A stretch of DNA of 32,000 nucleotides from Longivirga aurantiaca (lineage in GTDB: Bacteria; Actinomycetota; Actinomycetes; S36-B12; CAIYMF01), in assembly GCF_042660085.1 (NCBI RefSeq), contig NZ_JBHSTI010000002.1, forward strand, positions 450,001-482,000. The letters run 5' to 3'. The notes under the pieces are model-generated. The model was not told the DNA's origin and did not search any database. It was given only the letters and a program-made list of their open reading frames with translations. The position numbers were made by a program, and so were the translations under genes. Positions 2-13,448 of this stretch are shown in pieces. Each line of letters begins with the position of its first letter. Positions within the stretch are counted from its first letter, which is position 1.

Positions 2-1276
2 CTGCACTACGCCGTGCTGCCGTCCATGGCCGTCGGCCCGGACGACCTCGTCTCCTCGATCTCGCTGTCGTCGATGGCCGAGGGGCTCGCGCTGTTCGCC
101 GGCCCGATCCTCGCCGGCGTGGGCACCCAGGCGCTCGGCACCTGGTCGGTGGTCGCGTCCTGCACCGTCGCAGCGGCGCTCGCCACCGTGCTCGTGCTGG
201 GGCTCGGGCTCGCGTCGTCCGCGCCGCCGCACCACGGCGGCGACGACGAGAGCCCGCTGCGCGAGGCGTTCGCGGGCTTCGCCGCGCTGCGAGGCGACCG
301 GGGCGCGATCGCGCTCATGGTGGTGCTGACGACGTTCTTCGTCTTCATCGGCGCGATGGACGTGCTCGGCGTCGCCTACTCCGAGGACGTGCTGGGCCTC
401 GGCCACTCCGGCTCGGGCCTGCTCATCGGCGCGGCCGGGATCGGCGCCTTCGTCGGGGCCGCGATCGCCGCGTCGTTCGTGCGCCGTCGCGAGCTGACGC
501 CGGTCATCCTGGTCAGCGGCGTGCTCCTCGGGGCGGGGCTCGGCGCCGTGGCCCTGTTCACCGCGCTGCCCCCGGCGATGGCGGTGCTCGCCATCGGCGG
601 CCTCGCCGGCCAGCTGCTGATGGTCGCGGGGCGCACGCTGCTGCAGCGCTCGACGGACGACTCGGTCATCGCACGCGTCTTCGCCGTCCAGGAGAGCACC
701 TCGCTGCTCGGGCTGGCGCTCGGCTCCGCTCTCGCGCCGGTGCTGGTCGCCCTCATCTCCGCCCGTGGCGCGTTCATCCCGCTCGGCATCGGCATCGTCG
801 CGTGCGCCTTCGTGTGCGCAGCGTTCATCCGCTCGCTCGACGCGCGCGCGGTCTACCGCCCGGTCGAGATGGAGCTGCTGCGCTCGGTGCCGTTCCTCGG
901 CGTGCTGCCGCCGTACGAGCTCGAGCGGCTCGCGAAGACGGTCACCTGGCGCGAGGTGCCCGAGGGCACGGTCGTGGTCACCGAGGGCGAGCCCGGTCGG
1001 GACTTCTTCATCGTGGACGAGGGCTCGCTCGCCGTGCAGGTCGGCGGCGTCACCAGCCCCGAGCCGCTGACGGCTCCGGGGTGGTTCGGCGAGATCGCGC
1101 TGCTGCAGGACGTGCCGCGCACGGCCACGATCACGGCGCTCACGCCCGTGCGACTGCTGCGCATCCAGGCCGAGGACTTCCTCGCCGCCGTCACCGGCAG
1201 CCCGGACGGCCGGGCGCTCGCATCGGAGATCTCGGCGGGGCACCTCGCCCGCGACGCCGCCCGGCGAGCCACCTAG
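2..1276 (+). CDS. MFS-type transporter, C-terminal half (5' end cut by window edge), fused to a C-terminal cyclic-nucleotide-binding (CAP effector-type) domain
   Basis: The frame is open from base 2 (LHYAVLPSM...). About six hydrophobic helices are followed by ...RDFFIVDEGSLAV...GWFGEIALLQDVPRTATITALTPVRLLRI..., a typical cNMP-binding beta-barrel. Stop at 1274-1276. Confidence 0.8.
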   Translation: MHYAVLPSMAVGPDDLVSSISLSSMAEGLALFAGPILAGVGTQALGTWSVVASCTVAAALATVLVLGLGLASSAPPHHGGDDESPLREAFAGFAALRGDRGAIALMVVLTTFFVFIGAMDVLGVAYSEDVLGLGHSGSGLLIGAAGIGAFVGAAIAASFVRRRELTPVILVSGVLLGAGLGAVALFTALPPAMAVLAIGGLAGQLLMVAGRTLLQRSTDDSVIARVFAVQESTSLLGLALGSALAPVLVALISARGAFIPLGIGIVACAFVCAAFIRSLDARAVYRPVEMELLRSVPFLGVLPPYELERLAKTVTWREVPEGTVVVTEGEPGRDFFIVDEGSLAVQVGGVTSPEPLTAPGWFGEIALLQDVPRTATITALTPVRLLRIQAEDFLAAVTGSPDGRALASEISAGHLARDAARRAT

Positions 1277-2034: not shown

Positions 2035-2040
2035 TAGGGT
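2035..2040 (+). promoter_or_regulatory. -10-like TAGGGT 6 nt before the GTG of moeA (candidate leaderless promoter)
   Basis: TAGGGT-cggggg-GTG. No purine-rich RBS fits between the hexamer and the start. Confidence 0.4.
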
Positions 2041-2046
2041 CGGGGG

Positions 2047-3264
2047 GTGCGCAGCGTCGAAGAGCATCTCCAGCGGGTCCTGGCAGGGGTCGTGCCCCTG
2101 TCCCCGTTGGACCACACCCTGCTCGACGCGCGCGGCTGCGTGCTCGCCGAGGACGTCACCGCGCCCTGGCCGCTGCCGCCGTTCGACAACTCCGCGATGG
2201 ACGGCTACGCCGTGCGCGTCGAGGACGTCAAGGCCGCGAGCGACGGCAAGCCCGTCGTGCTGCGCGTCGTCGACGACGTCCCGGCCGGCTACCGCGCGAG
2301 CGTGCCCGTCACCGAGGGCACCGCGATCCGGATCATGACCGGTGCCCCGATGCCCGAGGGCGCCGAGGCCGTCGTCCCGGTCGAGTGGACCGACGGCGGC
2401 ATGCCCGAGGTCACGATCATGCGCGACGTGGCGCACGGGGCGCACGTGCGCTCGCGCGGCGACGACGTCTCGCTCGGCGATGTCGTGGCGACGTCCGGCA
2501 CCGTGCTCGGCCCGCGCGAGATCGCGCTGCTCGCCGCCGTCGGCCGCGGCCGCGTCTCGGTGCACCCGGCGCCGCGCGTGGTGATCCTGTCGACGGGCAG
2601 CGAGCTGGTCGAGCCGGGCACCCCGCTGCAGCCCGGCCTCATCACCGACTCGAACGGCTACACGATCGCCGCCGCCGTGCAGGAGGCCGGTGCCATCGCC
2701 TACCGCGTCGGCCCGGTGCCCGACGACGCGCCGCTGCTGCTGTCGACCATCGAGGACCAGCTCGTCCGCGCGGACATGATCGTGACGACGGGCGGCGTGA
2801 GCGCCGGCGCGTACGACACGGTGAAGGCCGTGCTCTCGCGCCTCGGCACGGTCGAGTTCACCAAGGTCGCGATGCAGCCCGGCATGCCGCAGGGCCACGG
2901 CTTCCTCGGCCCCGAGCAGACCCCGATCTTCACGCTGCCCGGCAACCCGGTGTCGGCGTACGTCTCCTTCGAGGTGTTCGTGCGGCCGGTGCTGCGCCGC
3001 ATGCTCGGCCACCAGCGCATCTACCGGCCGGTCGTCCGCGCGGTGCTCACGGAGACCCTGATGTCGCCGCAGGGCAAGCGCCAGTTCGCCCGTGGCCACC
3101 TGTCGGTCGAGGAGGGCCGCTACGTCGTGCGCCCCGCCGGCGGTCAGGGCTCGCACATGCTCGGTGCCATGGCGCAGGCCAACTGCCTCGTCGTCGTCCC
3201 CGAGGACGTCACCGAGGTGAAGCCGGGCACCGCGCTCGCCGTCCTGCGCCTCGACGAGGCCTGA
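2047..3264 (+). CDS. moeA: Molybdopterin molybdenumtransferase MoeA (gephyrin E-domain-like; Glp-type position in locus)
   Basis: 405 aa. The N-terminus ...EEHLQRVL...PLPPFDNSAMDGYAVR... and the TGGVSAGAYD and LPGNPVSAYVSFEVFVRP motifs are classic MoeA. Confidence 0.92.
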   Translation: MRSVEEHLQRVLAGVVPLSPLDHTLLDARGCVLAEDVTAPWPLPPFDNSAMDGYAVRVEDVKAASDGKPVVLRVVDDVPAGYRASVPVTEGTAIRIMTGAPMPEGAEAVVPVEWTDGGMPEVTIMRDVAHGAHVRSRGDDVSLGDVVATSGTVLGPREIALLAAVGRGRVSVHPAPRVVILSTGSELVEPGTPLQPGLITDSNGYTIAAAVQEAGAIAYRVGPVPDDAPLLLSTIEDQLVRADMIVTTGGVSAGAYDTVKAVLSRLGTVEFTKVAMQPGMPQGHGFLGPEQTPIFTLPGNPVSAYVSFEVFVRPVLRRMLGHQRIYRPVVRAVLTETLMSPQGKRQFARGHLSVEEGRYVVRPAGGQGSHMLGAMAQANCLVVVPEDVTEVKPGTALAVLRLDEA

Positions 3265-3265
3265 C

Positions 3266-3757
3266 ATGACTGCCGACCACGGACTGACGCACGTCGACGA
3301 GACCGGTGCCGCGCGCATGGTCGACGTCAGCGGCAAGGCGGTGAGCGTCCGCTCCGCCGTCGCCACCGGCCGCGTGCTGGTGTCCGACGACGTCGTCCGC
3401 GCCCTGCGCGACAGCACCGTGCCCAAGGGCGACGCGCTCGGTGTCGCGCGCATCGCCGGCATCCAGGCGGCCAAGCGCACCCCCGACCTCGTGCCGCTGT
3501 GCCACCCGATCGCGATCCACGGGGTCGTCGTCGACCTCGACGTGCACGACGACCACGTCGCCATCCGCGCCGAGGTCCGCACCGCCGACCGCACGGGGGT
3601 GGAGATGGAGGCGCTCACCTGCGTATCCGTCGCGGCGCTCGCCCTCGTCGACATGGTCAAGGCGCTCGACCCGTCGGCGACGATCACCGACATCCGCGTC
3701 GAGGAGAAGCTCGGCGGCAAGACCGGGGTCTGGCGCCGCGAGGGGCTCGAGGCCTGA
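3266..3757 (+). CDS. moaC: Cyclic pyranopterin monophosphate synthase MoaC
   Basis: 163 aa: LTHVDETGAARMVDVSGK...KGDALGVARIAGIQAAKRTPDLVPLCHP...TGVEMEALT. ATG lies 1 nt after the moeA stop. Confidence 0.92.
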   Translation: MTADHGLTHVDETGAARMVDVSGKAVSVRSAVATGRVLVSDDVVRALRDSTVPKGDALGVARIAGIQAAKRTPDLVPLCHPIAIHGVVVDLDVHDDHVAIRAEVRTADRTGVEMEALTCVSVAALALVDMVKALDPSATITDIRVEEKLGGKTGVWRREGLEA

Positions 3758-4251
3758 TGCGCGCGCTCGTCATCACGATCTCGACCCGCGCCGCAGCCGG
3801 CGTCTACGAGGACGTGTCCGGCCCGGTGCTGGTCGCGGGGCTCGAGGCGCTCGGGTTCGACGTCGCCGGCCCGACCGTGGTGCCCGACGGCCCGGAGATC
3901 GAGAGCGTGCTCCTCGGCGCCGTGCACGACCGCTTCGACGTGGTCCTCACCACCGGCGGCACCGGGCTGACGCCGAACGACGTCACGCCCGAGCACACCG
4001 CCCGCGTCATCACGCGCGAGGCCCCGGGCATCGCCGAGGCCATCCGCGCTGCCGGCGTCGCCAAGGGCGTGCCCACTGCGGCGCTGTCCCGCGGCCGGGC
4101 CGGCCTCGCCGGGGAGACCCTCATCGTCAACCTGCCCGGCTCGAAGGGTGGCGTGAAGGACGGCATGGCCGTCCTGTCGGAGCTGCTCGTGCACGCCGTG
4201 GAGCAGATCCGGGGTGGCGACCACCCCCGGACGGACGACGGCGCGGCATGA
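3757..4251 (+). CDS. moaB: MoaB/MogA-family molybdenum cofactor biosynthesis protein
   Basis: MRALVITISTRAA...VVLTTGGTGLTPNDVTPE...LSRGRAGLAGETLIVNLPGS. The ATG shares its A with the moaC TGA (TGATG). Only the in-frame C-terminal part of track ORF 3499..4251 is used. Confidence 0.88.
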   Translation: MRALVITISTRAAAGVYEDVSGPVLVAGLEALGFDVAGPTVVPDGPEIESVLLGAVHDRFDVVLTTGGTGLTPNDVTPEHTARVITREAPGIAEAIRAAGVAKGVPTAALSRGRAGLAGETLIVNLPGSKGGVKDGMAVLSELLVHAVEQIRGGDHPRTDDGAA

Positions 4252-7056: not shown

Positions 7057-7132
7057 TGGTGGAGCTGAGGGGACTCGAACCCCTGACCCCCTCGATGCGA
7101 ACGAGGTGCGCTACCAGCTGCGCTACAGCCCC
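7057..7132 (-). tRNA. tRNA-Ala (anticodon CGC)
   Basis: The reverse complement is GGGGCTGTAGCGCAGCTGGTAGCGCACCTCGTTCGCATCGAGGGGGTCAGGGGTTCGAGTCCCCTCAGCTCCACCA. It has a 7-bp acceptor stem with G3:U70, anticodon loop TTCGCAT, a GGTTCGAGTCC T-arm and an encoded CCA. Confidence 0.95.
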
Positions 7133-7829: not shown

Positions 7830-8663
7830 GTGACCGCGGCACCCGCGATGATGCGTGCCGTGGACGGGCTGAGCATCGACGTCGTCGGCGAGGGCGCGCC
7901 CGTGGTCCTGCTGCACGGCGCCCTGGGCTGGGGGGCGCAGACCTTCGCCGAGCAGTATGTGCTCGCCGACACCTATCGCCTGCATGTCGTCGACCGTCGC
8001 GGGTACGGCGCCTCTCCGCATCAGGGCGCGGTCGGGTGGCCCGTCGACGTACCGGACCTGCTCGCGCTTCTCGAGCAGCTCGGCGGTGCGCACGTGCTCG
8101 GGCACTCGTACGGCGGCGTGGTCGCGCTGATGGCCGCAGGGCAGCGGCCCGACCTCGTGCGGTCGCTCGTCGTCGTCGAGCCGCCGATGTACGGGATCAG
8201 CGACCATCCCGAGGCCCAGTCGCTCACCGCCGACCTCTGGGGCCTCGCCGAGCGGGCGCCGCACCAGGACGGCGCGGAGTTCTTCGCCGACTGGGCCGAC
8301 CTCGTCCTCGGCCTGCACCCGCGCCTGGTGTCGATCACGGTCAACGGCTGGAGCGACCTCGACCGCATCGCCGCCGAGGCAACGCGGGTCGAGGCGATGC
8401 CGCTCGACCCCCCGGTCGACTGGGACGGCGTACGACGGGTGAGCGGCCCCACTGTCGTGGCGTCCGGTGCCTGGCCGCCCGAGAACGCCCGCGCCGCAAC
8501 CGATCCCAAGCGGCTGCGCGCCGCGGCTGCCTTCCGGGAGACCGCGCGCGAGGTGGCCGAGCGGCTCGGCGTGCCGATCACGCAGTTCGACGCGTCCGGC
8601 CACAACCCGCAGCTCACCGAGGCGGCGGCGTTCAACTCGCTGCTCCGGCGTACCTGGGGCTGA
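7830..8663 (+). CDS. Alpha/beta-fold hydrolase
   Basis: PVVLLHGALGWG oxyanion region, VLGHSYGGVVAL nucleophile elbow, C-terminal SGHNPQL (His). The start is ambiguous: GTG 7830, or ATG 7848 giving MMRAVDG. Confidence 0.8.
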   Translation: MTAAPAMMRAVDGLSIDVVGEGAPVVLLHGALGWGAQTFAEQYVLADTYRLHVVDRRGYGASPHQGAVGWPVDVPDLLALLEQLGGAHVLGHSYGGVVALMAAGQRPDLVRSLVVVEPPMYGISDHPEAQSLTADLWGLAERAPHQDGAEFFADWADLVLGLHPRLVSITVNGWSDLDRIAAEATRVEAMPLDPPVDWDGVRRVSGPTVVASGAWPPENARAATDPKRLRAAAAFRETAREVAERLGVPITQFDASGHNPQLTEAAAFNSLLRRTWG

Positions 8664-8718: not shown

Positions 8719-10275
8719 TCAGGCGGGGCCGCCGACCTCGACGGTGATCTCGTGCAGGCCGGCTGACGCGCCCGGGAAGATGGGACGCTCCGCTTCGGTC
8801 TGCCAGGTGCCGTCGCTGCTCCGCGCGCGGCACTCGAGGGTGTGCGGGCCCGGGGTCGCGGGCCACTGCCACGACCACAGCCGCCACGAGTCGTCGCCGA
8901 CGTCGGAGGCGAGGACGGCGTCCTCCCACGCACCGCCGTCGACGCGCACCTGAACGGCCTCGATCCCGCGGTGCTGGTGCCAGGCCCGACCGCCGACCGC
9001 GACCGTGCCGCCCGTGATCAGCGTGCGGTTGCGAGGCACGTCGATCCGCGACGACAGCTCGATCGTCCCGTCGGCCGACCAGCCACGAGCCAGCCAGAAG
9101 GGCACCGTCTCCTGCAGCGTCGTCAGCCGGATAGCGCTGAGCCACTTGGTCGCCGAGACGTAGCCGTAGAGCCCGGGGACGACGAGCCGCGCGGGGAACC
9201 CGTGCTTCACGGGCAGCGGCTCGCCGTTCATGGCGTAGGCGATCATCGCGTCGCGGCCGTCGTCGAGGACCGACAGCGGGAAGCCGGCGGTGAATCCGTC
9301 GACCGACTCGCCCACGAGCGCGTCGGCGTCGGGCCGCACGCCCACCGTGGCGAGGACGTCGCTGAGCCGCACGCCCTGCCACCTCGCGTTGCCGACGAGG
9401 TCACCGCCGACCTCGTTGCTGACGCAGGTGAGAGTCACGTGCCGCTCGATGCTCGGCAGCGCGAGCAGGTCGGCGTACGACAGCGTGAGGGGCGTGGCGA
9501 CGCGCCCGTCGACGGTGAGCGACCAGCTCTCGACGTCCACCGCGGGCGTCACGAGCGCGGTGTCGATCTGGTAGAAATCCGCGTTCGGTGTGACGGCGGG
9601 TGCGAGGCCGGGCACCGCCGGGTCGACGCCGGCAGGCAGCGGCTTCGCGGGATCGGTGGGCTTCGGCAGCCCGATCGCGGCGCGCACGGTGTCGACCGCC
9701 GCCGCGCTCCCTCGCCGCGCTGCCGCTGCTATGCCGACGCCGACGGCGCCAGCAGCCGCCAGCACGGCGGCGAGCTGCAGGAACGCGCGGCGGTCGAGCG
9801 CTCCCGCAGGAGTGGATCGCATCGTGGGGCGGGTCGGGCTCAGCACGAGGCGTGTCCAGGCGAGGGCGCCGACCCCCACGCCGACGGCGAGGGCGATCGC
9901 GAGGGTGACGGCGTCCTGCACATTGCCTGTGAAGCAGAGCAGCCACGTGACGAGCCCGCCGGCGGCGAAGACCCACGGCACCCGCTCCGGCTTCGCGAAC
10001 CAGCCGACGAGCGCGCCCACGATCACGACACCGAGGACGATGCCGAGCACGAGCAGCGGCTTGTCGGCCGTGCCGACCGCGCCGATAAGCGTCTCGCGCA
10101 GGCCGTCGGGCGTGTTCTCGATGATGCGGTCGGCGAACGCCGCCGTGGGGCTGGGAGCGCCCGGCAGGATCAGCCCGGCCACCTCGGCGGCGCCGAGACC
10201 GGCGAGCGCGGAGGCGCCGCCCGCCAGCGTGAGCCGCGCCGGGTCGCGCCTGGCCTCGGCCTGGACCTCGCTCAT
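8719..10275 (-). CDS. Polytopic membrane-anchored molybdopterin-dependent oxidoreductase (sulfite-oxidase family) with internal twin-arginine motif
   Basis: Start at ATG 10275 (MSEVQAEARR...) with GGAGGGG upstream. About four N-terminal hydrophobic helices, then ALDRRAFLQLAAVLAAAGAVG. Moco domain: HVTLTCVSNEVGG, NGEPLPVKHGFPARLVVPGLYGYVSATKWL. C-terminal Ig-like domain. The upstream part of track ORF 8719..10596 is rejected because it overlaps ccdA. Confidence 0.88.
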   Translation of the reverse strand: MSEVQAEARRDPARLTLAGGASALAGLGAAEVAGLILPGAPSPTAAFADRIIENTPDGLRETLIGAVGTADKPLLVLGIVLGVVIVGALVGWFAKPERVPWVFAAGGLVTWLLCFTGNVQDAVTLAIALAVGVGVGALAWTRLVLSPTRPTMRSTPAGALDRRAFLQLAAVLAAAGAVGVGIAAAARRGSAAAVDTVRAAIGLPKPTDPAKPLPAGVDPAVPGLAPAVTPNADFYQIDTALVTPAVDVESWSLTVDGRVATPLTLSYADLLALPSIERHVTLTCVSNEVGGDLVGNARWQGVRLSDVLATVGVRPDADALVGESVDGFTAGFPLSVLDDGRDAMIAYAMNGEPLPVKHGFPARLVVPGLYGYVSATKWLSAIRLTTLQETVPFWLARGWSADGTIELSSRIDVPRNRTLITGGTVAVGGRAWHQHRGIEAVQVRVDGGAWEDAVLASDVGDDSWRLWSWQWPATPGPHTLECRARSSDGTWQTEAERPIFPGASAGLHEITVEVGGPA

Positions 10276-11060
10276 GCGGACCCCTCCGGGAGGAAGCCGG
10301 AGTCGAGGTTCCACGGCTGGATGGGGGAGTGCTCGAGGATCCAGGCCTGCAGGTCGCGGTCCCAGCCGAGTGCGACGGCGACCCCGACGAGGATGAAGAC
10401 CAGCCCGAGCCCGCGCCGGAACCTGCCGTGCGGGTCGGCCGCCCAGCCGAGCCTGGCGATGACCCGCTGGCCCGCGAGGGCGACGACCAGAAGCGTGCCC
10501 GCGAGGCCGACGACGTAGATCGTCAGCAGCACGAGGCCGTCGACGGGCGAGGCGGGCAGGACCGTGACGAGGACGTACGCGTAGAGCGGCGAGCACGACG
10601 TGAAGACCGGACCGAGTGCCGCACCCGTGAGGACGGCGCCTGCGGTGCCGTCACGATCGGCGGCCGCGGCGAGGCGCGCGGTGCTGCGCCCCTGGAGCCC
10701 GAGCCGACCGGACACCCTGTCCCAGGCCGTGGGGAACAGCATGGCCGCGCCGAGGGCGACGAGGATGCCGCCCGAGAGCCAGGACCACACCTCGGGCGGG
10801 ATGCCCAGCAGTGCGGTCGTCGCGCGCAGCAGCAGGGTGAACGCCAGCACCGACACGGCGAGCGATCCGGCCACCACCAGCGCGCGCCGTGTGCCCGGGG
10901 AGACGCGTTGCCTCACAGCGACAGATCCCGCGGCGTGATCCGCACCGGTCGTCGGAGCGACCGAGCCGCCCACGATGACGGGCAGCAGGGGGAGCACGCA
11001 CGGGGCGAGGGTCGTGAGGACGCCTGCCGCGAGCGCCCCCAGGAGGACGACAGGATCCAC
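10272..11060 (-). CDS. ccdA: Cytochrome c biogenesis / thiol-disulfide electron transporter CcdA (DsbD-core family)
   Basis: GTG 11060: VDPVVLLGALAAGVLTTLAPCVLPLLP... plus a second Cys motif, GPVFTSCSPLY. Six hydrophobic helices. The stop overlaps the molybdoenzyme start (ATGA). Confidence 0.85.
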   Translation of the reverse strand: MDPVVLLGALAAGVLTTLAPCVLPLLPVIVGGSVAPTTGADHAAGSVAVRQRVSPGTRRALVVAGSLAVSVLAFTLLLRATTALLGIPPEVWSWLSGGILVALGAAMLFPTAWDRVSGRLGLQGRSTARLAAAADRDGTAGAVLTGAALGPVFTSCSPLYAYVLVTVLPASPVDGLVLLTIYVVGLAGTLLVVALAGQRVIARLGWAADPHGRFRRGLGLVFILVGVAVALGWDRDLQAWILEHSPIQPWNLDSGFLPEGSA

Positions 11061-11062
11061 GG

Positions 11063-11566
11063 TCAGGCGACCTTCCCGGCGATCTCGCCGCCGGTGTAGG
11101 TGCCCGTCCAGGCGCCGATCTTCGCGCCGGAGGCGTCGACCTGGACGAAGGTGTGCTGCACGGTCACGCCGTACTGCTGGCGCAGTGCCGTCTCGCTGTC
11201 GAAGTCGAGCTTCACCACGGTGAGCCCGTCCGGCAGCGACGCGGGATCGGCCGTGAGGTTGGAGTCGGTCTCGCGGCACTTGGGGCACCAGTCGGCGTGG
11301 AAGAACAGCACCACCGGTCCGGAGGAGAACGCCTCCTTGTCGGCCGTGTAGTCGGCGTACGTCACGTAGCCGTCGCGAGCCTCGGCCGCGGGCGTCGTGG
11401 CCGACGCCGACGGTGAGCCGGACGTCGCCGGAGCGGTGGAGGAGGAGGCCGAACCGGCTGTCGACGCCGGTGCCGCCGAGCCCCCGGAGGTGGTCGTGCC
11501 GCAGGCGCCGAGCAGCAGCCCGACGGCGATCAGAGCGGGCAGGGCTCGTGCGGTGTGCGAAGTCAT
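11063..11566 (-). CDS. Extracytoplasmic thioredoxin-fold lipoprotein (WCPKC)
   Basis: ATG 11566 with GAGGAGAA RBS. Signal and lipobox ALIAVGLLLGAC, a Ser/Thr/Ala linker, then VVLFFHADWCPKCRE. The stop lies 2 nt before the ccdA start. Confidence 0.85.
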   Translation of the reverse strand: MTSHTARALPALIAVGLLLGACGTTTSGGSAAPASTAGSASSSTAPATSGSPSASATTPAAEARDGYVTYADYTADKEAFSSGPVVLFFHADWCPKCRETDSNLTADPASLPDGLTVVKLDFDSETALRQQYGVTVQHTFVQVDASGAKIGAWTGTYTGGEIAGKVA

Positions 11567-11688
11567 CGGCTTCTCCTCGGTCGAAGTGTTACCAGTGGAA
11601 CTCATCCGCGCACCCGGGAGGTCCCTCGAGCGCTTACGGACCGATGACGTCGTGCTCCGGGCCGCTGTCGCGGCGCATCCGCGGTCCG

Positions 11689-11694
11689 TACGCT
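11689..11694 (+). promoter_or_regulatory. -10-like TACGCT 6 nt before the GTG of the response regulator (candidate leaderless promoter)
   Basis: TACGCT-gcgcag-GTG. It overlaps the right arm of the TACGGACCG/CGGTCCGTA inverted repeat. Confidence 0.35.
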
Positions 11695-11700
11695 GCGCAG

Positions 11701-12438
11701 GTGCCTCGCGTCCTTGTCGTCGACGACGACCTCACCGTGGCCGAGGTCGTCCTCGGCTACCTCCGACGCGACGGGTTCGAGGCCGCGCACGCGGCAGATG
11801 GCCTCGCCGCTCTCGCGATCGCCGAGCAGGCACCGCCCGACCTCGTCGTGCTCGACCTCATGCTGCCCGGGATCGACGGGCTCGAGGTGTGCCGCAGGCT
11901 GCGTGCGGCGAACCCCTCCCTCCCGGTGGTCATGCTCACCGCGCGCGGCGAGGAGGAGGACCGCATCGCGGGCCTCGAGGTGGGCGCGGACGACTACGTG
12001 GTGAAGCCGTTCAGCCCGCGCGAGCTCGCCCTGCGCGTGCGCTCGGTGCTGCGCCGCACGGAGCCGCGGACTGCGGCCGAGGCCGATCCGGTGCTCGTGG
12101 ACGGCGATCTGCGCGTCGACACCGCCGCACGCGCCGCCACCCAGGGCGGCGCACCGCTCGCGCTCACGACGCGCGAGTTCGACCTGCTGTCGCACCTGCT
12201 CGCGAACCCCGGCCGGGCGATGTCGCGCGAGGACCTGCTGCGCGACGTGTGGGGCTGGGACTTCGGCGACCTCTCGACCGTGACCGTGCACGTGCGCCGG
12301 CTGCGCGAGAAGGTCGAGGCTGATCCCGCGACGCCGACCCGCCTCGTCACGGTGTGGGGCGTCGGCTACCGCTGGGACCCTGCTGCGTCCTCCGCCGGTG
12401 AGGCGCTCGCGCAGACCTACGGGGGCCCGGAGGAGTGA
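11701..12438 (+). CDS. OmpR/PhoB-family response regulator
   Basis: [10 protein letters not shown]...[21 protein letters not shown]...[13 protein letters not shown] receiver domain plus a winged-helix C-terminus ([12 protein letters not shown]...VWGVGYRW). An alternative ATG at 11644 is less likely. Confidence 0.88.
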
Positions 12439-13448
12439 CGCTCGACTTCGCGCTGGCCGCGCAGGCTGCGCTCGCCGCTGCCGTCGTGGGAGTGCTGGGC
12501 GTGCTGGGGGTTCTCCTGCTCGCCCGTCGGTCGCCCCGCTGGGCGGCGGTGCTGACACCCGTGATCGTGGTGCTCGCGGTCGCGGCGGGCGTGCTGGCGG
12601 GCGCGCGCTCGATGGTGCTCGAGGGCGCAGACCTCGCGGTCGTCTGGACCGTCCTGCTCGCGGTCGTGCCGGTCGCGCTCGTGGTCGGCGTGGTGCTCGC
12701 GCGGCGCACGATGGGCCTGCAGCGCGAGATCGAGCGCGAGGCCGCCGCGCGGGCGATGGAGGCCGAGGTCGAGGCGCGTCGGCGCGAGATGGTCGCGTGG
12801 GTCTCGCACGACCTCCGCACGCCGCTGGCCGGCATCCGCGCGATGACCGAGGCGCTCGAGGACGGCGTGGCGCCCGATCCGTCGGCGTACCACCGGAGGA
12901 TCCGCGAGGAGGTCGACCGGCTCGCGGCGATGGTCGACGACCTGCTCGCGCTGTCGCGGCTGCAGTCGGGCCAGCTCGAGCTGTCGCGGTCGCTGCTGCC
13001 GCTGCGCGACCTGGTGTCGGACACGCTGGCCGGTGCCGAGCCTCTGGCCCGCGAGCGCGGCGTGGCCGTGTCCGGCACGTGCGACGACGCGGTGACGGCG
13101 TACGTCGACGAGGCGGCGCTCTCGCGCGCGCTGACCAACCTCGTGGTGAACGCCGTGCGCTACACGCCGTCGGGCGGTTCGGTGCGGATCGAGGCGGCGT
13201 CGGACGGCGCGGTCACGGCGCTGCGCGTCGTCGACACGTGCGGCGGCATCCCCGCGGACGACCTGCCGCGTGTGTTCGAGGCCGGGTGGCGCGGCACGGT
13301 CGCGCGCACCCCGGGGGCCACGAGCGGCGCGGGGCTCGGGCTCGCCGTCGTACGAGGCCTGGCCGACGCCCTCGACGGCTCCGTCACCGCCGCCAACACC
13401 CCCACCGGCTGCGTCTTCACCCTCACCGTCCCGGCCACCGCCCCCTGA
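12435..13448 (+). CDS. Sensor histidine kinase (three N-terminal TM helices, no obvious extracytoplasmic or HAMP domain)
   Basis: GTGA overlap with the regulator stop. H-box [13 protein letters not shown]. ATPase motifs [30 protein letters not shown]. Confidence 0.88.

Follow-up and report, generated by a model that had tools for sequence, protein, structure and literature searches.

How do Actinobacteria deal with proteins that are oxidized outside the cytoplasmic membrane? The question is raised by a locus in a 32,000-nucleotide stretch of Longivirga aurantiaca DNA (contig NZ_JBHSTI010000002.1, positions 450,001 to 482,000 of the forward strand; G+C content ~72–76%), hereafter the window. 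In this locus, an operon for an exported lipoprotein thioredoxin (Trx), a CcdA-type membrane transporter and a polytopic molybdenum (Mo) enzyme of the sulfite-oxidase fold lies divergent from a regulator-kinase gene pair (the sensor pair). Extracytoplasmic repair of oxidized proteins is well described in Proteobacteria, which use MsrPQ under the control of HprSR, and in Firmicutes, which use CcdA-Etrx-MsrAB; a search of the literature found no paper on an equivalent in Actinobacteria, on this sensor pair or on this Mo-enzyme family. An earlier note on the window had suggested that Trx and CcdA form an electron shuttle to the Mo enzyme in place of an MsrQ-like heme partner. Comparative genomic evidence is best read otherwise, namely that Trx-CcdA and the Mo enzyme act side by side, as effectors that can be separated, and not as one fixed electron chain. 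The locus as a whole we read as a two-component-controlled regulon for envelope oxidative damage with modular effectors, an account that we give about an even chance of being right. The features on which the argument turns are the following, with positions in the window:

8719–10275, minus strand: polytopic Mo enzyme of the sulfite-oxidase fold, 518 amino acids (PF00174)
9424–9426, minus strand: Cys284, predicted Mo ligand (TLTCVSN), from alignment
9787–9792, minus strand: internal twin-arginine (Tat) motif, R162-R163 in DRRAFL, which precedes the fifth membrane helix
10272–11060, minus strand: CcdA-type thiol-disulfide membrane transporter, 262 amino acids (cysteine motifs and the Pfam matches of its homologues)
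11063–11566, minus strand: exported lipoprotein thioredoxin, 167 amino acids (PF00085, lipobox Cys22, WCPKC)
11633–11649, minus strand: candidate response-regulator operator CGTCATCGGTCCGTAAG, a conserved 17-bp direct repeat
11701–12438, plus strand: OmpR/MtrA-like response regulator, 245 amino acids (Response_reg and Trans_reg_C)
12435–13448, plus strand: histidine kinase, 337 amino acids (HisKA and HATPase_c)
12612–12614, plus strand: kinase Met60, in the predicted extracytoplasmic loop between helices 2 and 3 (alignment; topology from the positive-inside rule)

The list of open reading frames and profile searches confirm the five genes at the coordinates at which they had been called, along with their motifs and spacing: a gap of 2 nucleotides between the Trx and CcdA genes, an overlap of the CcdA stop codon with the Mo-enzyme start codon (ATGA) and a divergent spacer of 134 bp between the Trx start and the regulator gene. 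The kinase gene, in turn, overlaps the regulator gene by 4 nucleotides. The Trx start at 11566 is backed both by a GAGGAG ribosome-binding site before the ATG and by the alignment of orthologues. The ATGA overlap is also kept in the related loci L165, L167, L168 and L171 (L numbers denote related loci throughout), which implies translational coupling of CcdA and the Mo enzyme. Scans for sigma-70 promoters and intrinsic terminators between positions 8500 and 13700 gave no match, as expected for a high-G+C actinobacterium. The gene arrangement goes beyond chance because it recurs in several divergent genomes and is accompanied by a conserved cis element.

Which of these genes belong together was addressed by a census of 176 related loci, comprising two sets of 80 anchored on the Mo enzyme, one drawn from species-representative genomes and the other from metagenome contigs, and 16 from exact look-ups of close homologues of the Mo enzyme or CcdA; the census covers the linked neighborhoods. 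In a distance tree, one Mo-enzyme clade (L001, L002, L081, L082, L084–L087, L103, L167 and L168, at ~53–90% identity to the window enzyme, with L004 as sister) bears the sensor pair upstream and in divergent orientation in every member for which upstream sequence is available, and its kinases and regulators are 71–89% and 79–94% identical, respectively, to those of the window. The three modules combine freely: the sensor pair occurs, in most relatives that have it, with the Mo enzyme and no Trx-CcdA (L002, L081, L082, L084–L087 and L103), and otherwise with Trx-CcdA and no Mo enzyme (L169/L170, L173 and L174), or with both (the window, L001, L165, L167, L168 and L171/L172). Trx-CcdA is located between the spacer and the Mo-enzyme gene only in the subclade of at least 74% identity (the window, L001, L165, L167 and L168). 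Even within this subclade, L081 is without Trx-CcdA and is fully syntenic from eno to moeA, and L166 is without both Trx-CcdA and the sensor pair. Conversely, L169/L170, syntenic with the window, have lost the Mo enzyme and retain Trx-CcdA alongside the sensor pair. The kinases of L173 and of Serinicoccus kebangsaanensis (L174), which represent other genera, align over their full length with that of the window at 45–50% identity. On the tree, Trx-CcdA was gained in this subclade by insertion into a pre-existing locus of sensor pair and Mo enzyme and was lost later in L081 and L166. The view that the association extends beyond close relatives stands in part. The full five-gene set is present in L171/L172 in a different synteny, with a CcdA 69% and a Mo enzyme ~65% identical to those of the window; otherwise, it is confined to the subclade of at least 74% identity, and the CcdA profile detects a nearby CcdA gene in only one of the 164 loci of the unbiased scan.

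A second line of evidence comes from the divergent spacer, the alignment of which contains one conserved block, CCGTCA-N4-TCCGTAAG, with CGTnA half-sites 11 bp apart and the consensus CGTSA-N4-YYSGTAAG. Such spacing is the geometry expected for tandem binding by an OmpR-family protein. The site in the window lies 66 nucleotides upstream of trx and 51 nucleotides upstream of the regulator gene, and the degenerate pattern CGTSANNNNYYSGTAAG has this single match in the 32 kb (chance expectation 0.29 at no more than one mismatch). Across 177 loci (1.95 Mb), the pattern matches once per locus in 19, always just upstream of the Trx or the Mo-enzyme operon, and these matches include loci outside the set from which the pattern was derived: L167, L168, L169/L170 (which have no Mo enzyme), L171/L172, L173, L007 and L009. 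In L173, the site stands upstream of Trx even though the sensor pair is not arranged divergently to that gene. L174 is the exception among the sensor-pair loci in that no full site precedes its target operon; weaker sites are found before the regulator gene in both L173 and L174. A position weight matrix recovered six further strong sites in held-out loci (L012, L021, L027, L038, L064 and L065), compared with a mean of 0.65 in shuffled sequences, and each of the six is a short distance upstream of the Mo-enzyme gene and in the opposite orientation. Furthermore, the site precedes the Mo-enzyme gene without an adjacent sensor pair in Micromonospora, Nocardia and metagenome-assembled genomes. In the Micromonospora loci L007 (5046–7317), L009 and L021, the Mo-enzyme gene directly follows groES-groEL and the site occupies the groEL/Mo-enzyme spacer in reverse orientation, with no sensor pair within 8 kb. 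We infer that the 17-bp site is the operator of the regulator and that it places Trx-CcdA and the Mo enzyme in one regulon. The conserved divergent synteny and the spacer site together bear out the earlier view that the two-component system is dedicated to the operon. A separate TACGCT/TAGGCT hexamer is conserved ~7 nucleotides before the regulator start codon (window positions 11680–11701 and the equivalent positions in related loci), and its position suggests a leaderless or near-leaderless regulator transcript.

The sensor itself is small. The profile search detects HisKA and HATPase_c in the kinase, no HAMP domain and, in line with the earlier note, no sensor domain; three hydrophobic helices precede this core, and the phospho-acceptor is His125. 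According to the positive-inside rule, the N-terminus lies outside and a turn in the cytoplasm (ARRSPR) leads from helix 1 to helix 2, so that the predicted outward-facing segment is a single loop of ~10 residues. Met60 in this loop does not vary among the 18 kinases that were aligned, some of them only ~36–50% identical, and full-length orthologues of the kinase are encoded in 17 loci. The best NCBIfam match of the regulator is MtrA, at 232.7 bits and thus below the 300-bit cut-off. The regulator is 36% identical to Escherichia coli HprR (NF008567, 145 bits vs. a cut-off of 353), and the kinase aligns with HprS in the catalytic core alone, at 27% identity.

The thiol arm consists of two recognizable components. 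The thioredoxin (34.4 bits against PF00085) combines a lipobox, LLGAC22, with the active site W-C94-PK-C97, and both the lipobox and the WCPxC motif are kept in all 11 aligned orthologues. The scores of CcdA fall just below the Pfam thresholds (24.2 bits for DsbD_2, cut-off 24.9; 22.1 bits for DsbD_TM, cut-off 27.1). Its homologues at 60–97% identity carry PF02683/PF13386 and are named CcdA in their sources, both cysteine motifs, LAPC21VLP and FTSC156SPL, are present, and a weak match to Thermus CcdA (5vkv) spans the PCVLP motif. The linker of the window Trx consists of serine, alanine, threonine and proline, without methionine. Linkers rich in methionine and aspartate occur elsewhere, with (DMASEDMDD)n in S. 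kebangsaanensis (L174, 5385–5999) and AMEKE/AMAKD in L175/L176 (5445–5972). A role of Trx-CcdA in cytochrome c maturation was considered and set aside, as no ResB/ResC gene is adjacent.

The Mo enzyme has a single Pfam match, Oxidored_molyb (PF00174, E = 4.5e-45, 153.7 bits vs. a cut-off of 24), and its relatives also match Big_7 and Mo-co_dimer. The AlphaFold2 model (predicted local distance difference test score 87.7, predicted template modeling score 0.81) places helices at residues 12–36, 57–93, 96–114, 119–145 and 162–200. The modeled order is four membrane helices, a disordered loop, a long helix that starts at the twin arginines, the molybdenum-cofactor (Moco) domain and an immunoglobulin-like (Ig-like) C-terminal domain. 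Family alignments were built from 20 and 77 homologues. In the larger one, R162-R163 is invariant in 77 of 77 members, as is Cys284, which aligns with SorA Cys104 and MsrP Cys102, and a motif PSPxxxxADRxIxxxPDGxRExLIGAVGTxDKP is conserved between helices 1 and 2. Thus, the enzyme is probably inserted by both Sec and Tat, with four Sec-type helices and a Tat-type fifth. Because no column of the N-terminal membrane domain exceeds 14% histidine or 25% cysteine, the enzyme is predicted to be heme-less and is not of the heme-binding Sco3746 or MsrQ type. No MsrQ-like neighbor is present in the window or recurrent in the family loci, and no cytochrome c gene of the SorB/SoxD type is present in the window or recurrent in 103 family loci; on this point, the earlier observation that a heme partner is missing holds. 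More generally, the search for a recurrent redox-partner gene beside the Mo enzyme found none, and multiheme cytochromes were seen at L084 only, where two such genes (Paired_CXXCH, 9571–12594) are found immediately downstream of the Mo-enzyme gene and are read from the opposite strand. The N-terminal domain (residues 1–200) offers no functional clue: a word-indexed search, in which hydrophobic words swamp the index, gave one weak match, and an exhaustive phmmer search gave 157 matches, mostly short contig fragments, with no other domain fusions. Tandem duplicates of the Mo-enzyme gene are found in L059 (8001–11792) and L064 (6331–9419), and cultured genera with the enzyme include Micromonospora and Kribbella. 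A 2.1-kb metagenome contig (Ga0073899_10109228; L094, 2–490) encodes the last 163 residues of the enzyme at 99% identity and probably comes from the same population as the window or a sister population.

With respect to the catalytic domain, the nearest solved structures are SorA, chicken and plant sulfite oxidase, SorT, the Thermus enzyme and SoxC (phmmer 88 bits, 24–30% identity, Foldseek E ~1e-20 to 1e-26). The best Foldseek matches are SorA (2blf, E = 9e-26) and chicken sulfite oxidase, with 320–350 aligned columns, compared with E = 1e-10 for MsrP, the similarity to which is limited to the core Moco domain (149 columns in hhalign). None of the characterized families claims the protein: its scores are 120.7, 110.1 and 67.7 bits for the NCBIfam models of SorA, SoxC and SorT (cut-offs 600, 420 and 570) and 42.1 bits for that of MsrP (NF003767, cut-off 207). 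Moreover, the residues of the sulfite pocket are replaced. The position of SorA R109 (chicken R190), five residues after the ligand cysteine, is a near-invariant Val289 in an ungapped and hence secure register. In the phmmer alignment, SorA H57 and Y236 correspond to the invariant Asp238 and Trp399. SorA R55 (chicken R138) corresponds there to Gln236, in a register that hangs on a one-residue gap; the change is the same as R138Q in the chicken-enzyme structure 2a9b, and many more distant relatives have arginine. The pocket loop is also ~10–15 residues shorter. Taken together, these features place the enzyme in an apparently uncharacterized branch of the sulfite-oxidase fold and make a classical sulfite dehydrogenase unlikely.

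Hints on the damage to which the regulon might respond are offered by the gene neighborhoods of relatives. In S. kebangsaanensis (L174, 5385–11301), furA and katG come after Trx-CcdA, with the orthologous kinase and regulator genes beyond them on the opposite strand, so that a catalase-peroxidase lies inside the module. In Streptomyces kronopolitis (L045, 5246–9455), consecutive genes encode a Sco3746-type protein (its helices contain histidine, its Tat motif lies near residue 253 and it has an MsrP-like CVEGWS motif), a bcp peroxiredoxin and a heme-less member of the present family. Outside the sensor-pair clade, a fasciclin (PF02469) lipoprotein that resembles MPT70/MPT83 is encoded directly downstream of the Mo-enzyme gene and on the same strand in 13 family loci (L026, L033, L035, L039, L046, L059, L060, L062, L064, L075, L076 and L092/L093; for example, L060 9517–10275 and L093 7502–9409); the window and the sensor-pair clade have no such lipoprotein. 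Several of these fasciclins carry methionine-rich acidic repeats, such as (DDDAM)x7 in L093, EEAMEEEAMEEDGMEEDGMEED in L062 and DDMAEEDMAEE in L060, which may recall the scavenger MrpX discussed below, with a Cu(I)-binding role as an alternative. These contexts (furA-katG, bcp and methionine-rich neighbors) point to envelope oxidative damage and, more specifically, to the chemistry of methionine and cysteine. In L175/L176 (3521–8193), the Trx-CcdA subfamily is found in another setting, between a DipZ-like DsbD_TM-redoxin fusion and an extracytoplasmic function (ECF) sigma factor paired with an anti-sigma factor of the RskA type, an arrangement that resembles the mycobacterial SigK regulon in its layout.

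The sensor-regulator pair very probably switches on the trx-ccdA-Mo-enzyme operon, and we propose that it does so in the following way. The kinase would sense an envelope oxidant via its membrane helices or the 10-residue outer loop, possibly through oxidation of Met60, and would phosphorylate the OmpR/MtrA-like regulator, which in turn would bind CGTSA-N4-YYSGTAAG in the 134-bp spacer and drive trx-ccdA-moco as a single transcript. CcdA would then take reducing equivalents from thioredoxin in the cytoplasm and hand them to the lipoprotein thioredoxin, and the latter would reduce oxidized thiols of exported proteins; a thiol relay of this kind is the established function of the CcdA and thioredoxin families. 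The Mo enzyme, with its first four helices inserted by Sec and its fifth helix and folded Moco domain handled by Tat, would treat a second form of oxidized extracellular sulfur, for which methionine sulfoxide in proteins is the likeliest candidate. In the lineage of the window, the thiol arm and the Mo enzyme have come together in a single operon.

Parallels with characterized systems help to define what is shared and what is not. The earlier analogy with HprSR-MsrPQ and CcdA-Etrx-MsrAB2 proves apt at the level of logic. In E. coli HprSR (YedVW)/hiuH-msrP-msrQ, as in the window, a two-component system with an OmpR-type regulator is divergent from the operon of an exported Mo enzyme of the sulfite-oxidase family. 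Methionine residues of the HprS periplasmic loop are needed for the sensing of hypochlorous acid (HOCl) and have been proposed as a redox switch, with feedback from MsrP (bioRxiv 10.1101/2021.09.09.459708). The window kinase likewise has a methionine in its outward segment, invariant in the outer loop. However, the resemblance is not one of orthology: a periplasmic domain is present in HprS but not in the window kinase, and MsrP is a single-domain soluble protein with MsrQ as partner, in contrast to the two-domain, SorA-like, polytopic window enzyme, which lacks a heme partner. In the pneumococcus, TCS09 (YesMN) induces ccdA1-etrx1-msrAB2, and across species this sensor pair is found together with ccdA and etrx (PMC11034029; PMC13488963). 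There, too, CcdA and a surface lipoprotein thioredoxin share an operon with a terminal enzyme for oxidized sulfur (in the window, the repair role is our proposal), but MsrAB is thiol-based and reduced by thioredoxin through known chemistry, whereas the terminal enzyme of the window is a molybdoenzyme with single-cysteine orthologues at Trx-linked loci. Furthermore, the regulator families differ, and the window-type Trx-CcdA and Mo enzyme separate freely in relatives.

The architecture of the Mo enzyme has a precedent in Sco3746 of Streptomyces coelicolor, a polytopic heme-Moco protein of dual Sec/Tat insertion, the topology of which was shown experimentally (Tooke et al. 2017, PMC5449189). The two share five membrane helices, a twin-arginine motif right before the fifth and an extracytoplasmic Moco domain of the same superfamily. 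Sco3746, however, has conserved histidines in helices 2–4, two predicted b hemes and the Tat motif near residue 250, whereas the window family has a different N-terminal domain, no conserved histidine or cysteine in it and the Tat motif at residue 162. With SorAB/SorT and the animal and plant sulfite oxidases, the window enzyme shares the Moco and Ig-like domains, the Mo-ligand cysteine and the HGFPxRxVVPG motif, but it is without the sulfite-pocket residues and a cytochrome partner and is anchored in the membrane by 4+1 helices. In Azospira suillum, MrpX-YedY1 reportedly scavenges hypochlorite, with the methionine-rich MrpX recycled by YedY1 under an ECF sigma factor. That system and the present family both place an exported Mo enzyme of the sulfite-oxidase family beside a methionine-rich exported protein, given the (DDDAM)n fasciclins of other family branches, but the window operon has no methionine-rich protein, its Mo enzyme is not a YedY/MsrP orthologue and its regulation is by a two-component system and not a sigma factor. 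Finally, mycobacterial fasciclin antigens flank the CcdA-family gene dipZ in mpt83-dipZ-mpt70, under SigK-RskA (PMC9861118). This is likewise an actinobacterial CcdA-family/thioredoxin module tied to envelope signaling and fasciclin lipoproteins, but no Mo enzyme is reported in the triad and the regulation is of the sigma/anti-sigma type. The locus is a genuine and conserved regulatory module, best seen as the counterpart in Actinobacteria, at the level of logic, of HprSR-MsrPQ and TCS09-CcdA1-Etrx1-MsrAB2, with non-orthologous parts and interchangeable effectors.

Other explanations divide the labor differently. If CcdA and the lipoprotein thioredoxin were dedicated electron donors of the Mo enzyme, the latter would be a heme-less, thiol-driven sulfoxide reductase, with the thiol pair replacing MsrQ. 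This would account for the conserved ATGA overlap in L165, L167, L168 and L171, for the absence of heme ligands and of a recurrent redox-partner gene, and for the full set in two separate lineages, and it would have a parallel in the CcdA-Trx-MsrAB systems (PMC13488963). Yet close relatives have suffered reciprocal losses, L081 having the Mo enzyme only and L169/L170 Trx-CcdA only, and the one CcdA gene near 164 scanned loci tells against a fixed pairing as well. Moreover, the Trx-linked Mo enzymes of L167 and L168 (P0006 and P0008) contain one cysteine only, the Mo ligand, and therefore offer thioredoxin no disulfide or sulfenate to reduce, and none to maintain. Cys482, a candidate extra conserved cysteine for contact with Trx, is replaced by valine in L167, L168 and L171. 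We know of no sulfite-oxidase-family enzyme that accepts electrons from a dithiol. We therefore regard such a donor role as unlikely, and the shuttle put forward in the earlier note is not borne out, given the separation of the modules among relatives and the single-cysteine enzymes. The fullest form of the idea, in which the CcdA-Trx relay reduces the heme-less enzyme, stands in for MsrPQ in monoderm Actinobacteria and is governed by a kinase that reads the oxidation of its own outer-loop methionine, is a long shot. If true, it would provide the first extracytoplasmic molybdoenzyme driven by a thiol-disulfide shuttle.

In another view, the enzyme would be no more than a sulfite dehydrogenase or oxidase anchored in the membrane, sulfite would be the signal and Trx-CcdA would repair sulfite-damaged thiols. 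Pointing that way are its closest matches in sequence and fold (SorA, chicken and plant sulfite oxidase, SorT and the Thermus enzyme) and its two-domain architecture with an Ig-like domain of the dimerization type; plant sulfite oxidase, too, functions without heme. Against this, the SorA/SoxC/SorT scores lie far below the cut-offs, the pocket residues are replaced (Val289, Gln236 and Trp399), the pocket loop is shortened, and a SorB-like cytochrome gene is absent from the window and not recurrent in the family loci, so that we consider a sulfite-oxidizing role distinctly unlikely. Still less probable is a purely ancillary Trx-CcdA, which would either maintain or mature the cysteines of the Mo enzyme or be a neutral insertion of a mobile cassette. 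Trx-CcdA is indeed a widespread actinobacterial cassette with many contexts, such as that with the ECF sigma/anti-sigma factors and the DipZ-like gene in L175/L176, and it entered a pre-existing sensor-pair/Mo-enzyme locus. However, the Mo ligand is the only conserved cysteine of the Mo enzyme, and the cofactor is loaded prior to Tat export, which leaves nothing in need of upkeep. Neutrality is opposed by the loci in which the same sensor pair and 17-bp site presumably control Trx-CcdA where the Mo enzyme is absent, which makes Trx-CcdA a genuine regulon member and not a passenger. We consider either form of this explanation very improbable.

The reading that we favor, a modular regulon with parallel thiol and Mo-enzyme arms, has its own difficulties. 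No electron donor can be named for a reductase role, the Mo enzyme being predicted to be heme-less. The Mo domain is nearer to sulfite dehydrogenases than to MsrP in both sequence and fold, so that the reductase role is argued from context and not from the catalytic site. In loci without an adjacent sensor pair, the 17-bp site points the other way with respect to the Mo-enzyme gene, and the putative operator is assigned from conservation and OmpR-like geometry. In addition, Trx-CcdA or the Mo enzyme could also be encoded elsewhere in these genomes, unlinked to the loci surveyed, and such copies could hide an obligate partnership.

Among the flanking genes, those for Moco synthesis were considered as a part of the module and set aside. 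They are present, with moeA at 2038–3264, moaC at 3266–3757 and a moaB-like gene ending at 4251, but in some relatives they lie several genes away with unrelated genes between, and we regard them as conserved housekeeping synteny without a specific link. A gene for an MPAB/Lcp-type oxygenase domain (PF09995; 13506–14711, minus strand) abuts the kinase gene, a position kept in L081 and L166–L170. A tRNA-Ala(CGC) gene (7057–7132, minus strand) is located between the Moco-biosynthesis block and the flank of the operon, and a tRNA-Leu(TAA) gene is found at 22176–22250 (plus strand). At 2–1276 (plus strand), an open reading frame cut by the window edge combines a major facilitator superfamily transporter domain with a C-terminal cyclic-nucleotide-binding domain.

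The present analysis defines a candidate actinobacterial regulon that comprises a small, predicted loop-sensing kinase, an MtrA-like regulator and a putative 17-bp operator. It also delineates a widespread, apparently heme-less family of Mo enzymes with modular links to Trx-CcdA and to fasciclin lipoproteins of the MPT70/83 type. If confirmed, these findings would provide a function for a large orphan enzyme family and might illuminate the obscure mycobacterial mpt83-dipZ-mpt70 triad.

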